From: an archaeon
Lineage (GTDB): Archaea > Iainarchaeota > Iainarchaeia > Iainarchaeales > 1-14-0-10-31-34
Assembly (NCBI GenBank): GCA_043815885.1
Contig: JBDRIL010000060.1
Span: 1 to 51,245 of the forward strand
Length of the DNA stretch: 51,245 bases
Reading direction: 5' to 3'
The position numbers were made by a program, and so were the translations under genes. Positions within the stretch are counted from its first letter, which is position 1. Each line of letters starts with the position of its first letter. The notes beneath the pieces were generated by a model that saw nothing but the letters and a program-made list of their open reading frames with translations, had not been told where the DNA came from and ran no database searches. Below are positions 3,574-9,699 of this stretch, in pieces.

Positions 3574-3590
3574 AGGCGATGATGAGCTTA
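3574..3590 (+). repeat. Direct repeat copy 2, AGGCGATGATGAG(c)TTA
   Basis: 16/17 identical to 2553-2569; overlaps the hydA stop codon. Confidence 0.7.
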
Positions 3591-4862
3591 TCCCCATTTC
3601 ACTTTAAGGAAGTGGGCTGAACAGGAAAAGCAGGGGTCATAGGCGCGGATGAGTTTTTCCATTTCCAGGGAGATTTCTTCTTTTGGTTTTTTCAGGAGAG
3701 AGGGAAGAAAGAGTTTGATGTCTCTCTCTATGGATGCGACATTTTGGGCTGTAGGGACAACCAGATTGCATTCCTTAACTGTTCCTTTTTCATCGAATTT
3801 ATAGGAATGATAGAGTGTTCCTCTGGGGGCTTCAACTACCCCTATTCCGACTGATTTTCTTGGGGTTATTGGAGGAATTGATTCCTCTCTTAATTTTAAG
3901 TCCTTTATCTTGTCTATTGCGTAATCAATGAAGTGAAGTATTTCGACTGCCTGGGCAAGATTGTTTGCATAAGGGCATTGTTCTTTTAGTTTTACTCCAA
4001 TTCTATTCAACTCGTTCCTGGTTTCTTTTCTAATTCTTTTATGCATTAAATTGTATCTGCTTAAGGCTCCGACATAGAATTCCTCTCCAAAGAGCTTGGC
4101 GAATTTTGCAGTGGAAAAAGAGACAACGTATTCCCTTAAATTGCTTAAGTATTCTTCTTCTGGAATGCACATTCCTTTATTGGAGCAGACCATTCCTGTA
4201 TTGAGGGAATAATCATTGTTCACTAAAGAAATGTAAGTGGACGGCCTGACGCATTCATACTTAAAGGAATTAAATAATTCGATGCATTTCACTGCATCCT
4301 TTCTTGCCTTCTTTAAGTGATCATATAATTCATTCAATTGTTTTTGATAAGGAATTACCTTGAATCCTCCGATCGTTGCATTCACTGGATGAATGGCTCT
4401 TCCGCCAAACACCTTCACGATTTCTGAAGCTACCTTCTTTATTCGGATTGCCCGATGGATTTCTTCATGGTGTTTTTCCTCGAAATCAAGGATGGAATCC
4501 TTTCCAAGATAATCAGGAAGTGAGAAAAAGTAAAGATGGAGGGTGTGGCTTCTGATTATTTCCCCTATAAGCATTAGGTTCTGCATTAATCTGGTTTGTT
4601 CTGTGGTTTCTACGCCAAATGCTTTTTCTATGGCCTTAACTGAGGCAGAGACATAGGAAGTGGAACAGACACCGCAGATCCTTGAAGTAAAGGTCGGGAT
4701 ATCCTTATAGCTTCTTCCAACAACCATTTCCTCAAAGAAACGGGCATTCTCTGTAATATCCAGCTGGGCTTTCTCTACTACTCCTTTTCTTACTCTGAGG
4801 AATAAATTTGAATGGCCTTCAACTTTTGTTAAGCCATAAAGACTCAAATCCATTGAATGCAT
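3588..4862 (-). CDS. hydA: Group 3b NiFe hydrogenase (sulfhydrogenase) large/alpha subunit
   Basis: 'KVEGH', L1 'RICGVC', 'EAPRGTLYH', L2 'DPCFSCSAH' plus a short C-terminal extension. GGAGG SD precedes ATG 4862. Confidence 0.93.
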   Translation of the reverse strand: MHSMDLSLYGLTKVEGHSNLFLRVRKGVVEKAQLDITENARFFEEMVVGRSYKDIPTFTSRICGVCSTSYVSASVKAIEKAFGVETTEQTRLMQNLMLIGEIIRSHTLHLYFFSLPDYLGKDSILDFEEKHHEEIHRAIRIKKVASEIVKVFGGRAIHPVNATIGGFKVIPYQKQLNELYDHLKKARKDAVKCIELFNSFKYECVRPSTYISLVNNDYSLNTGMVCSNKGMCIPEEEYLSNLREYVVSFSTAKFAKLFGEEFYVGALSRYNLMHKRIRKETRNELNRIGVKLKEQCPYANNLAQAVEILHFIDYAIDKIKDLKLREESIPPITPRKSVGIGVVEAPRGTLYHSYKFDEKGTVKECNLVVPTAQNVASIERDIKLFLPSLLKKPKEEISLEMEKLIRAYDPCFSCSAHFLKVKWG

Positions 4863-4875
4863 TTTCTTCCTCCTT

Positions 4876-6491: not shown

Positions 6492-8682
6492 TTTTTTCAC
6501 CGCTGATATTGTTTACTATTTTCACTATATCGATTGAGACAGGGCATACATCAATACACCTTCCGCATCCAACACAGAGGTGCTGGGGGAAATTCTTTTT
6601 ATGGTAGAGTAATTTGTGGAGGATGAAATGCCTTAATCTGGAAGTACGGGACTTCCTGAATATATGGTCGCCGGAAACACGGGTAAAACGCTTTAACTGG
6701 CAGGAATCCCATTCCCTCATTCTAACAGCATCATTGCTCAGCAAAGCAAAATCATCCTTTATTCTGTAGCAGTAGCATGTAGGGCAGACCATTGTGCAGG
6801 AACCGCAACTCAAACAAATGTCTGCATTTTTCTCGAATTCTTTATGGGAAAAATTTTTTTTAAGGATTTCCTCAAAATTCTTTGAATTAATTTTTCTCGG
6901 GGTTTTTGGGACAGTAAGAGGGGAGTGCTTTTCAGTGGAAGAAAAAAACTTCTTGTTTATGAGTTTTAAGCCTTTTTCAGAGCCAACCTCTGCAAGGTAA
7001 TTCTTTCCGTTTCTCCAAAAGAATAAATCGAATTCTTGCGGAAGGTGAGTTCCGAGAGAGGTACAGAAACAGTTTTCCCCTGCTTCTTCACAGCTCAAAC
7101 CAATTAAAATTGAGTTCTCTCTTTTTTCCCAGTAAAAGGAATCAATTGGTTCCTTTAGGAAAACTGAATCAAGGATTGAAATTGCATGGAGGTCACAGCT
7201 CCTGATTCCAAAAAATATTCTATTTCCTGCTCTCGGGAGAGGCTTAACGGAATAAGAAGAATTTTTTTCATTGAATTCAAATAAGGCTTCTCCTGAAGGA
7301 AGAAAATATTTTTTTGTTGAAAAGGTGGTGGGTTTTTCCATGTAAAGGTTTGCTTCAGGGAATGGCTTGAAGCGCTTTATTTTTCTGTGGTCAAGGGAAG
7401 GGACAATCAATTCAGTTTTTTTATTTAATTCTTTCAGGAAAGGAAGGAGTTTTTCTTTCTTTAATTCAAATAATCCAAAAAATTGCTTTTTATGATTTTT
7501 TAATTCTTCTATTGCAGAAAGGGTTTTGCCTGAAAGGAATTTAAGCGAGGCCTTTCCGCTGAGGGAAACATAAGAGAATCTGTTTTTCGGGATTTTAAAT
7601 GAAAGCAGTGCTGTCTCAGTGTCCCCGCCTCCCAAAAAAGAGAATGCGTTGGAGGAAGCAATTGATTTAAGAATGCTTTTAGTTCCAAGGGAGAATTCTT
7701 TTTCCTCAAAGACTCCAAAAGGGCCATTGAATACAATCATTCTTGCTTTGGCTATTTCATCTGAATATAATTTAATTGTTCTTTCGCCGATGTCCTTGCT
7801 GAAGTATTTTGAGGGAAGGTCATCAACACTTAATTCCTTTCTTTTTTTGTTTTCATCAAAGGCCAAATCTATTGGAAGGAGAATCCTGCTTCCGTACTTA
7901 TTCAGTAATTCCTTTGCTTTTGGAATGAATTCAGTGAAATTCTTTTTTCTAATAAAGGAATCTTTGGCTCCAAGCTTGTGTCCCTGCGCAGAGAGAAATA
8001 CTTCAGAGAGAGCGCCTCCCAAAAGCACTTTGTCTGCCTTTCCTTGCTTCAGAAAAAATTCAATTGTTTTAATTGAGTCTTTTGGCTTAATTCCTCCGAG
8101 TATAAGCAAGCGGGGTTTTTGTGTAAAGGAAAGCGCTTTAGAGAGGGAATTGAGCTCTTTTTCCATTACCCCTCCAATGCAGGAAGGAAGTAAAGGGAGG
8201 AATCCTACAACTGATGCATGGCTTCTGTGGCTGACAGAAAACGCGTCCAATACAAATAAGTCTGCTTCTTTCGCCAAGTCCTGAATCCATTTTTCCTTTG
8301 AGTGCTCCAAGGGAGAGAGTTCCTTTGTTTCGTTTTCAAGGAAACGCGTATTTTCTAGGAGAAGGATTTGGCCTTTCTTTAAGTTTTTTACTTTCTGGAT
8401 AAAGTTATTCCATTCAGAGAATAAAACCTTTTTTCCGGTTAATCTGGAGAGAATTTTTGAGTGTTCTTTTAAGGAAGTGAAATCTTTCTCGCCTTTTCTT
8501 CCCTGATGGGATAAAACAATCAATCGGGTTTTTTTCCTGCTTAATTCCTTTAAGGTTTTAGCATGCTCAATAATTCTGCTTGAAATTACTGGTCTAGAGT
8601 TCTGAATATTGCTGTTGAAGTCAGCCCTTACAATAAGTGTTCTGCCACTAATATTCAGTTTATTTACCGGAGTTAAGGACAT
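6481..8682 (-). CDS. pgk: Fusion of phosphoglycerate kinase (about aa 1-397) and hydrogenase beta subunit HydB (4Fe-4S)
   Basis: PGK motifs: RADFN, SHQGR, LLENTRF, HRSHAS, NGPFGVFE, GGGDT. HydB/AsrA motifs: GIRSCD, CFC, CLSCGSCTMVCPTCYC, WDSC, CVGCGRCIDVCP. One uninterrupted frame. Confidence 0.92.
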   Translation of the reverse strand: MSLTPVNKLNISGRTLIVRADFNSNIQNSRPVISSRIIEHAKTLKELSRKKTRLIVLSHQGRKGEKDFTSLKEHSKILSRLTGKKVLFSEWNNFIQKVKNLKKGQILLLENTRFLENETKELSPLEHSKEKWIQDLAKEADLFVLDAFSVSHRSHASVVGFLPLLPSCIGGVMEKELNSLSKALSFTQKPRLLILGGIKPKDSIKTIEFFLKQGKADKVLLGGALSEVFLSAQGHKLGAKDSFIRKKNFTEFIPKAKELLNKYGSRILLPIDLAFDENKKRKELSVDDLPSKYFSKDIGERTIKLYSDEIAKARMIVFNGPFGVFEEKEFSLGTKSILKSIASSNAFSFLGGGDTETALLSFKIPKNRFSYVSLSGKASLKFLSGKTLSAIEELKNHKKQFFGLFELKKEKLLPFLKELNKKTELIVPSLDHRKIKRFKPFPEANLYMEKPTTFSTKKYFLPSGEALFEFNEKNSSYSVKPLPRAGNRIFFGIRSCDLHAISILDSVFLKEPIDSFYWEKRENSILIGLSCEEAGENCFCTSLGTHLPQEFDLFFWRNGKNYLAEVGSEKGLKLINKKFFSSTEKHSPLTVPKTPRKINSKNFEEILKKNFSHKEFEKNADICLSCGSCTMVCPTCYCYRIKDDFALLSNDAVRMREWDSCQLKRFTRVSGDHIFRKSRTSRLRHFILHKLLYHKKNFPQHLCVGCGRCIDVCPVSIDIVKIVNNISGEKNEE

Positions 8683-8700
8683 CCAAAAAGTCTCCTTAAT

Positions 8701-9699
8701 TCATTCAGCAAGCATCTCAATTAATTCAATCAGCCTGCAGGAATAACCCCATTCATTGTCATACCAGGCCATTACCCTGATCATTTTTCCATTCACTACC
8801 TGAGTGGAGAGAGAATCAACTATTGATGAATGCGGATTTCCAATTATATCGCTTGAAACCAGTGGTTCCTCTGAGTACTGGAGAATGCCTTTCAGTTCCT
8901 TTTCTGAAGCTTTTTTCAATGCTGCATTAACTTCCTCTACTGAAGTGCTTTTTTCCACTAAACAAGTGAAATCAGTAATAGAGCCATTTGGGGTCGGAAC
9001 CCTCAAAGAAATTCCATCCATTTTTCCTTTTAATGGAGCGTAAACCTTTCCTACTGCGCTTGTTGCGCCAGTAGTAGTAGGAATAATGTTTATTGCTGCT
9101 GCTCTCGCTCTCCTTAAATCCTTATGCGCTAAATCAAGGATTCTCTGGTCGTTAGTGTAAGAATGAATTGTATTCATTAATCCCCCAACAATCTTGAAGT
9201 TTTCATCCAACACCATTGCAACTGGAGCAAGGCAGTTAGTGGTACAGGAAGCCATGGAAATGGTTTTATGCTCTTTCTTTAATTGTTTGCAGTTCACTCC
9301 TCTTACCACAGTGAAGTCAGTATCGTCCTTAGTTGGAGCAGAAATAATTACCTTTTTTGCTCCTGCCTGCAAATGCTTTTCATAGTCTTCTTTCTTTCTG
9401 AATGCTCCAGTGCTTTCAATCACTACATCTACATTCATTTCCTTCCACGGAAGCTTTAATGGATCTTTTTCAGCAAGAACCTTTATCTTATTTTTTCCTA
9501 CAAGGAGGGAGTTTCCTTCTGCTTTTACTTCCTCCTTCAGAATTCCATGGACTGAATCATACTTCAATAAATGCGCTAAAGTAGGGGCATCAGTTAAATC
9601 ATTCACTGCAACAAATTCTATTCCTTTATTTCCTAACCCAGCCCTTAAAACCATTCTCCCAATTCTTCCAAAACCATTTATTGCAACCCTTACAGCCAT
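8701..9699 (-). CDS. gap: Type I (bacterial-type) glyceraldehyde-3-phosphate dehydrogenase
   Basis: 'INGFGRIGR', '[10 protein letters not shown]', 'WYDNEWGYS'. Confidence 0.97.

Follow-up and report, generated by a model that had tools for sequence, protein, structure and literature searches.

This work concerns a gene fusion in a 51,245-nucleotide stretch of DNA (contig JBDRIL010000060.1 of assembly GCA_043815885.1, analysed whole and called the window here) from an archaeon of the order Iainarchaeales—a phosphoglycerate kinase (PGK) that runs without a break into HydB, the iron-sulfur beta subunit of a hydrogenase resembling group 3b, within an operon that reads gap, pgk::hydB, hydG, hydD, hydA. 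We are highly confident that in this organism the only detectable PGK and the beta subunit of the only detectable hydrogenase are encoded as one in-frame fusion, and that the arrangement is a derived one. The larger proposal, that in this derived state the PGK tether links ATP-yielding oxidation of triose phosphate to exchange between NAD(P)H and H2, is one towards which we lean only slightly. The fusion was first pointed out in an earlier note on the window, written from the letters alone; here we take up its claims along with the evidence that bears on them.

Anatomy of the Fused Protein

Positions 6481 to 8682 of the minus strand form one open reading frame (ORF) of 733 aa with an ATG start (window protein P0001). 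The earlier note described it as a full PGK continuing into a full hydrogenase beta subunit, and Pfam, NCBIfam, and solved structures all agree. The Pfam PGK family (PF00162) matches residues 7–386 with an E-value of 4e-101 and 339 bits against a cut-off of 27, covering positions 2–379 of a 379-position profile; the best solved structure for this part, 2cun_A, aligns with residues 9–394 (E 8.5e-72). On the other side of the junction, the NCBIfam sulfhydrogenase-2 beta model (ShyB) covers residues 406–728 (profile 5–331 of 334, E 3e-57), the HydB model matches residues 407–730, and a Pfam dicluster domain, Fer4_22, lies at residues 623–717 (E 1e-31). The best structure here is 9nez_B, the beta subunit of sulfhydrogenase 1, over residues 6–328 of the HydB part (E 6e-46). 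E-values of this size exclude chance matches, and judged by profile coverage both halves are full length.

The same note held that the junction has neither a stop nor an in-frame ATG, GTG, or TTG. The junction text that it quoted is present, and codons 351–424 of the fusion contain zero stops and zero in-frame ATG, GTG, or TTG codons; a separate HydB start near the junction is therefore impossible. The next in-frame candidates, a TTG at codon 425 and an ATG at codon 448, both lie within HydB and have no Shine-Dalgarno-like sequence ahead of them.

Against a 60-row PGK alignment, the window protein keeps each of the 21 invariant columns and each of the 37 nearly invariant ones; the substrate- and nucleotide-binding motifs of PGK are HQGR, NxRF, SHRSH, GGxK, and GGGD. 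The HydB half is likewise intact at all invariant positions of a 35-row HydB alignment, 13 of which are cysteines. The host genome (G000; 1.16 Mb in 62 contigs, 91.7% complete) gives a single PGK match, which is the fused gene—that it should be the sole PGK in a genome this complete argues for retained PGK function, the activity itself being predicted. One [NiFe] large subunit was found in G000 and no [FeFe] hydrogenase; triosephosphate isomerase (TIM) is encoded separately (C36:9147-9893).

An AlphaFold2 model of the fusion, built from an alignment (A6) of three fused rows and 27 HydB rows, has a mean predicted local distance difference test score (pLDDT) of 76.5 and a predicted template modelling score (pTM) of 0.55. 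The HydB half is confident, and the PGK half only moderately so because only three rows cover it. In the model the last PGK helix spans residues 387–401 and, after two residues, the first HydB strand spans 404–408; as modelled, the junction is about 10 residues long and essentially without a flexible linker. A complex prediction for the HydB domain with the PGK domain gave no answer (scores of 0.00 and 0.00), and we count this result neither way.

A Real but Rare Fusion

A lost base or a chimeric join could mimic read-through between neighbouring genes, and the window does come from a 62-contig draft. Contigs from two studies, independently assembled, nevertheless bridge the junction (7468–7497) without a gap: a Logan contig of run X1 spans 6900–7704 with 11 substitutions and 0 gaps, and a contig of run X2, from a different study, spans 7316–7604 with 2 substitutions and 0 gaps. 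These are assembled contigs rather than raw reads; nine of the 11 differences in X1 are synonymous and none makes a stop. Neither the indel nor the stop that the earlier note named as grounds for doubt appears at the junction in these contigs.

The PGK plus 4Fe-4S dicluster architecture that the note proposed to look for recurs in two further proteins. P0002, on a 2.7-kb contig from another source, has 733 aa and 89% identity to the window fusion (90.6% in PGK, 88.4% in HydB); P0003, truncated at its N-terminus by a contig end, has 571 aa and 52% identity (48.3% and 56.3%). Junction length is identical in all three fused proteins, with residues 396–405 varying in sequence. An assembly artefact is thus excluded for practical purposes, and we give that explanation next to no probability.

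The fusion is rare: the three known proteins form two clusters at 50% identity. Searched exhaustively with phmmer, 1.84 billion cluster representatives yielded only P0001 and P0003 as matches that span both halves in a single stretch. When the HydB half was searched against proteins of 584–2000 aa, 73 matched, with PGK only in P0001 and P0002; of the 71 other long HydB proteins, most of those listed have about 631 aa and combine HydB with a FAD/NAD-binding part. A scan of metagenome contigs with junction peptides (alignment A5) gave no further fused locus among the matches listed, L063 and L064 being unrelated. Two genomes taken as candidates for further fusions from open frames of 795 and 777 aa (G087 and G096) were rejected when translation across their junctions revealed stops.

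PGK has other fusion partners. Nine other long PGKs, checked among the 150 best matches, comprise PGK-PfkB, tandem PGK-PGK, and cytidylyltransferase-PGK proteins and one with a TCAD9-like tail. Metagenomes hold PGK-PfkB sugar kinase fusions of about 710–750 aa (P0274, P0295, P0306, P0308, P0322), tandem PGK-PGK proteins of about 795 aa (P0199, P0217), and a cytidylyltransferase-PGK of 565 aa (P0220).

The earlier note knew of no description of the fusion, and the literature searched agrees—in the text available to the search, which covered neither supplements nor subscription-only papers (among them those on the 2015 Diapherotrites genomes), there is no account of a PGK-HydB fusion or a gap-pgk-hyd operon. 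Neither is described in the accessible portions of PMC11237513, PMC8421398, PMC11606122, bioRxiv 10.1101/2019.12.18.881540, PMC5220378, PMC8091004, PMC11216029, or PMC8561730. The first of these, a systematic survey of archaeal fusions, mentions in its accessible part only a beta-gamma fusion for hydrogenase, in 11 archaeal assemblies; group 3b enzymes are noted in Diapherotrites, Woesearchaeota, and the candidate phyla radiation (CPR) in the available portions of published papers.

Conserved Linkage of pgk and hydB in Relatives

HydB was found in 28 of the 215 species genomes of the window's class (E at most 1e-30), with a distribution by family of 22/23 in f20, 2/2 in f28, 2/9 in f1 (the family of G000), 1/4 in f8, and 1/2 in f5. 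In 27 of the 28, G000 included, pgk lies immediately upstream of hydB on the same strand; in G175 the two are 3.1 kb apart. We translated the pgk-hydB boundary in 23 loci from relatives and judged four genomes (G091, G092, G093, G099) by coordinates. A stop follows pgk in all 23 translated loci, and hydB comes directly next on the same strand in 22 of them.

Separate genes in all close relatives had been named in advance as the mark of a recent accidental read-through, and here the earlier note's test divides: the genes are indeed separate in the other HydB-bearing genomes (27/27), but pgk is kept directly upstream in 26 of those 27, and the linkage is therefore old and conserved rather than accidental. 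The search for gap-pgk-hyd synteny that the note had called for also had a positive outcome, with gap directly upstream of pgk in 15 of 22 relatives' loci as well as in G000; gap-pgk pairs are also common in relatives that have no hydrogenase. The kept neighbourhood points to a tie between sugar breakdown and hydrogen metabolism in this group.

Loci from other lineages lack the link. In a set of 80 HydB loci taken from GTDB species genomes, PGK lies upstream in 22, of which 11 are titled Candidatus Iainarchaeum/ainarchaeum. The flanks of the other 58, which include Aenigmatarchaeota, Woesearchaeota, Micrarchaeota, Altiarchaeota, and many bacteria, contain no PGK or GAPDH match, and 51 of these 58 loci extend at least 1.4 kb upstream. 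Four loci (L072, L077, L078, L083) carry the Iainarchaeum-type gap-pgk-hydBGDA operon under the titles Thaumarchaeota, Falkowbacteria, Chloroflexota, and Chloroflexi; their labels or binning appear doubtful.

Several unfused boundaries are close to joining. In G035 (L014:8232-8237) and G168 (L047) the TGA of pgk is followed by the in-frame ATG of hydB ('...LESG*MQFILPKK'), one substitution from a fusion, and such junctions might allow occasional read-through to the fused form; in G027 the two genes overlap by ATGA. Three PGKs of family f20 (L043 in G087, L059 in G090, L060 in G089) end in an acidic tail of 55–70 residues, rich in Glu, Pro, and Ala, before the stop—to go by composition, these tails of unfused relatives are possible flexible tethers or docking tails. 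In the genome of L076 and G099:C12:9639-10851, the PGK upstream of hydB is apparently split in two frames, through a frameshift or an assembly error.

Origin of the Fusion

The fusion is a derived state of a lineage-specific arrangement in which pgk stands directly upstream of hydBGDA, usually after gap. In a HydB tree of 19 rows, the three fused proteins form a clade (support 96/96) whose sister group contains the unfused G003 of the same family; in a PGK tree of 31 rows, to which P0003 contributes an incomplete PGK, G003 sits at the base of a monophyletic family f1 (96/97), and genus g2 is separate. The simplest history starts from an ancestral gap-pgk-hydBGDA operon in the family, with one stop loss before G000, P0002, and P0003 and with loss of the hydrogenase in genera g2 and g3. 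A lenient tblastn search (E up to 10) gave no hydrogenase remnants 3' of pgk in seven unfused f1 genomes (genera g2 and g3), matching only short ferredoxin-like stretches elsewhere. The fused proteins are as far apart as 52% identity; to judge from this divergence, the fusion has been kept over time and did not arise by a recent accident.

One further genome, G002, has a free PGK and no hydrogenase. By eye, the membrane protein and the conserved unknown that lie 3' of its pgk (L020:6878-8523) have look-alikes beside hypC in G000 (C25:6243-7915), and the coiled-coil gene that precedes gap (window 9755-10633) also appears conserved there, judging by eye from N-terminal sequences.

Identity of the Hydrogenase

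The best solved structures for HydA belong to group 3b: 5yxy_A (E 9e-67) and 9nez_D (E 5e-65). Structures of that group score 221–229 bits, against 186 for Mvh (3c), at most 150 for Frh (3a), and 121 for the NAD-reducing enzyme (3d); by structure-match scores, rather than by a hydrogenase-wide tree, the large subunit is nearest group 3b, which is where the earlier note had placed the enzyme. Both CxxC pairs of HydA, RICGVC and DPCFSCSAH, line up with their counterparts in 5yxy_A, and the His is followed by a short C-terminal extension. The subunit set is complete—alpha, delta, beta (iron-sulfur), and gamma (FAD/NAD(P))—and its best NCBIfam names are those of sulfhydrogenase 1 or 2 subunits, the top-ranked match of HydG being the gamma subfamily model of cytochrome-c3 hydrogenase. 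All hydrogenase NCBIfam scores lie far below the equivalog cut-offs (ShyA, for example, at 274 against 700 bits).

Proposed Mechanism

Glyceraldehyde-3-phosphate dehydrogenase (GAPDH) makes NAD(P)H and 1,3-bisphosphoglycerate, PGK turns the latter into 3-phosphoglycerate and ATP, and group 3b hydrogenases exchange electrons between NAD(P)H and H2 via HydG and HydB; all three enzymes are reversible. In the mechanism that we propose, each hydrogenase complex would carry one PGK, fixed at the N-terminus of HydB, and the tether would place an enzyme that consumes 1,3-bisphosphoglycerate and makes ATP beside HydG and HydB, the module that oxidises NAD(P)H. The complex could also recruit GAPDH, as the earlier note proposed. 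Together with co-transcribed GAPDH, the fusion would give the net reaction glyceraldehyde 3-phosphate + Pi + ADP to 3-phosphoglycerate + ATP + H2, and the hydrogenase would serve as the sink for GAPDH-derived NAD(P)H; an alternative NADH sink of the Ldh_1_C family was not found in G000. The tether may bring kinetic coupling, or it may secure only a fixed stoichiometry and joint assembly. This reaction is slightly unfavourable at standard conditions and feasible at low H2. Channelling would leave its equilibrium unchanged; it could hold local 1,3-bisphosphoglycerate low and NAD(P)H high.

A bolder version extends the idea to the whole order: PGK would be a fifth hydrogenase component, bound non-covalently in most members and covalently here, and together with co-transcribed GAPDH would make up a soluble machine that turns glyceraldehyde 3-phosphate, Pi, and ADP into 3-phosphoglycerate, ATP, and H2 and is matured without the canonical HypD/HypF route. 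We think this version unlikely.

Weighing the Proposed Coupling

A number of observations weigh against coupling through a PGK tether. Since no other HydB-bearing genome of the class has the fusion, the covalent link is dispensable for the role of the operon. Because 22 of the 28 HydB-bearing genomes belong to family f20, the pgk-hydB linkage rests on about five family-level observations, and a single ancestral insertion plus inertia could explain part of it. The PGK tree groups the fused proteins with G002 in an unresolved clade (91/88), so that either G002 lost the hydrogenase part or the history of the fusion is more complex than one event. With a pTM of 0.55 and a PGK half of moderate confidence, the relative orientation of the domains in the AlphaFold2 model is unreliable. 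None of the public runs covering 6900–8100 is listed as RNA. The family of L-lactate and malate dehydrogenases (Ldh_1_C) was not found in G000; because it is rare across the order (8 of 196 genomes, and none of the eight other f1 genomes), its absence there says little.

Maturation of the hydrogenase belongs among these points as well. HypD was found neither in G000 nor in the five relatives tested, and none of the 28 genomes with HydB gave a match to it; G000 likewise gave no match to the HypF zinc finger. These negatives make it hard to account for assembly of the [NiFe] centre and lower confidence in canonical H2 turnover. Across the order, HypD occurs in only four of 196 genomes, all from other families and all without HydB. 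The HypA match in G000 falls below the cut-off; HypC is present in all six genomes tested, and a HycI-type protease in G000 scores above its cut-off (Hyp-gene positions are contig C25:6027-6212 and 8595-8831). The full maturation set (HypCDEF, HypAB, and protease) was not recovered in G000, HypE and HypB not having been searched for.

The fusion may also be a near-neutral one, made by stop loss between translationally coupled neighbours in an operon of co-regulated fermentative genes, the fused protein performing no worse than its two parts, with no physical or kinetic coupling of glycolysis to the hydrogenase. We consider this possible, though on balance unlikely. The junctions of G035 and G168, a single mutation from fusion, fit such a history; the unfused state of all 27 other HydB-bearing genomes, the small number of fused proteins (three), and the variable residues 396–405 fit it too. 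It sits less well with a fusion kept to 52% identity in one clade with junction length unchanged, with the retention of every invariant residue in both halves, or with the specificity of the linkage—pgk, and no other glycolytic gene, adjoins hydB in 27 of 28 genomes from five families and in none of the 58 loci elsewhere.

Another alternative is that the complex does not turn over H2 at all. The HydB and HydG parts also match the NCBIfam AsrA and AsrB models, and as homologues of these proteins they could work as an NAD(P)H:acceptor oxidoreductase, with polysulfide, for example, as the acceptor; alternatively, maturation could depend on a partner organism. The Hyp results favour such a role (HypD in 0 of 28 HydB-bearing genomes, no HypF zinc finger found in G000, HypA below the cut-off). 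HydA, however, keeps both CxxC pairs and the short C-terminal extension after the His, HypC and the protease are present as described, and every complete locus still has hydD and hydA, apparently under constraint. We regard a role without H2 as distinctly unlikely.

Finally, the proposed coupling could run in the opposite direction: H2 uptake would yield NAD(P)H, with which GAPDH would reduce 1,3-bisphosphoglycerate supplied by the tethered PGK, in an H2-driven gluconeogenesis. Gene content suits both directions equally, PGK and GAPDH being reversible. The window GAPDH carries 'NDL' near residue 32, which we take to be the type I NAD-type signature and count against the reverse direction. Group 3b enzymes are bidirectional according to the accessible text of PMC8561730 and PMC5220378, a point in favour of that direction. 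It would, however, cost ATP in a fermentative-looking organism with a genome of about 1.16 Mb, and no RuBisCO was found in G000 to supply 3-phosphoglycerate by the nucleotide-salvage route. We therefore hold net operation towards glucose to be improbable.

Comparison with Known Systems

In its alpha, delta, beta, and gamma subunits and its gene order (hydB-hydG-hydD-hydA), the hydrogenase resembles the group 3b enzymes SHI of Pyrococcus furiosus and cytosolic Hyh of Thermococcus kodakarensis. It differs from them in that its beta subunit bears a whole N-terminal PGK, its operon starts with gap, HypD and HypF were not found, and its subunits score below the NCBIfam equivalog cut-offs.

Two kinds of fusion invite comparison. 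The PGK-TIM fusion described by NF010569, known from Thermotoga, also has a second enzyme at the PGK C-terminus, and its model matches residues 4–399 of the window protein. The match, however, covers only positions 4–396 of 645 and scores 274 against a cut-off of 883 bits, with no TIM domain; the partner here is a redox iron-sulfur subunit and not the next-but-one glycolytic enzyme. In the sulfhydrogenase-like HydB-HydG (beta-gamma) fusions, HydB is also a fusion partner. Those proteins join subunits of the same enzyme at the HydB C-terminus, whereas here an enzyme of another pathway is joined at the HydB N-terminus.

Thermococcales couple glycolysis to H2 through ferredoxin, using glyceraldehyde-3-phosphate:ferredoxin oxidoreductase (GAPOR) and a membrane-bound hydrogenase. 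As in the coupling proposed here, electrons from triose-phosphate oxidation are disposed of as H2; the Thermococcales route, however, bypasses PGK and its substrate-level ATP, relies on ferredoxin and a membrane enzyme, and involves no fusion or shared operon.

Group 3b hydrogenases are usually viewed as free-standing NAD(P)H/H2 valves, whereas here an ATP-forming glycolysis gene precedes the hyd genes. The fusion offers a construct that could be expressed to ask whether H2 formation is physically coupled to substrate-level phosphorylation, and it bears on the coupling question behind the long debate over channelling between GAPDH and PGK. As a marker operon, the gap-pgk-hyd arrangement may help to trace groundwater archaea with small genomes that produce H2 by fermentation. 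That HypD is apparently lacking from every HydB-bearing genome raises the question of whether, and if so how, these archaea make their [NiFe] centres.

The Operon and Its Surroundings

The coordinates of the operon are collected in Table 1. The gap gene 18 nt upstream and the tight succession of hydG, hydD, and hydA had been noted before, and the spacers and ribosome-binding sites agree. The likely start of hydG is the ATG at 6476, 5 nt past the stop of the fusion, and that of hydA the ATG at 4862, preceded by AGGAGG. Spacers among hydG, hydD, and hydA are 2–13 nt or short overlaps, with GAGGA or AGGAGG ahead of each gene.

Table 1. Features of the gap-pgk::hydB-hydGDA operon in window coordinates.
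Feature	Position	Strand	Evidence
Spacer 5' of gap; A/T-rich stretch (possible archaeal TATA element), AAGGGGGA ahead of gap ATG	9700..9754	(-)	Sequence; promoter role putative
gap, type I (bacterial-type) glyceraldehyde-3-phosphate dehydrogenase, 332 aa	8701..9699	(-)	Gp_dh_N, Gp_dh_C, TIGR01534
gap/pgk::hydB spacer, 18 nt, AAGGAG ribosome-binding site	8683..8700	(-)	Sequence
PGK domain of fusion (residues 1-395)	7498..8682	(-)	PF00162 E 4e-101; 2cun_A; all 21 invariant columns
Junction, residues 396-405, NHKKQFFGLF	7468..7497	(-)	No stop or start codon; same length in three fused proteins, sequence variable
HydB domain of fusion, residues 406-733 + stop; iron-sulfur beta subunit, group-3b-type hydrogenase	6481..7467	(-)	ShyB/HydB models, 9nez_B, 13 invariant Cys columns, pLDDT mostly 80-95
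hydG, FAD/NAD(P)-binding gamma subunit with [2Fe-2S] domain	5664..6500	(-)	FAD_binding_6, NAD_binding_1, DHODB_Fe-S_bind
hydD, [NiFe] hydrogenase small (delta) subunit	4876..5661	(-)	Oxidored_q6; HydD and ShyD E 1e-52 to 1e-53
hydA, [NiFe] large subunit; RICGVC near N-terminus, DPCFSCSAH near C-terminus	3588..4901	(-)	Domain matches; 5yxy_A, 9nez_D

The GAPDH reaches 440.4 bits with TIGR01534, against an equivalog cut-off of 367.2, and contains both Gp_dh_N and Gp_dh_C. The archaeal type II model matches it only at E 0.003; the same bacterial type I form accompanies pgk throughout the order.

Beyond the operon, a pilus-like locus occupies window positions 10757-21247. Within it, 16229-19345 (+) encodes a 1038-aa ATPase of the T2SSE/type IV pilus type whose sequence is split by an intein carrying a LAGLIDADG endonuclease domain. 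On the 3' side of this ATPase gene are two T2SSF-family genes; on its 5' side are several small ORFs whose N-termini are hydrophobic and which match no family.

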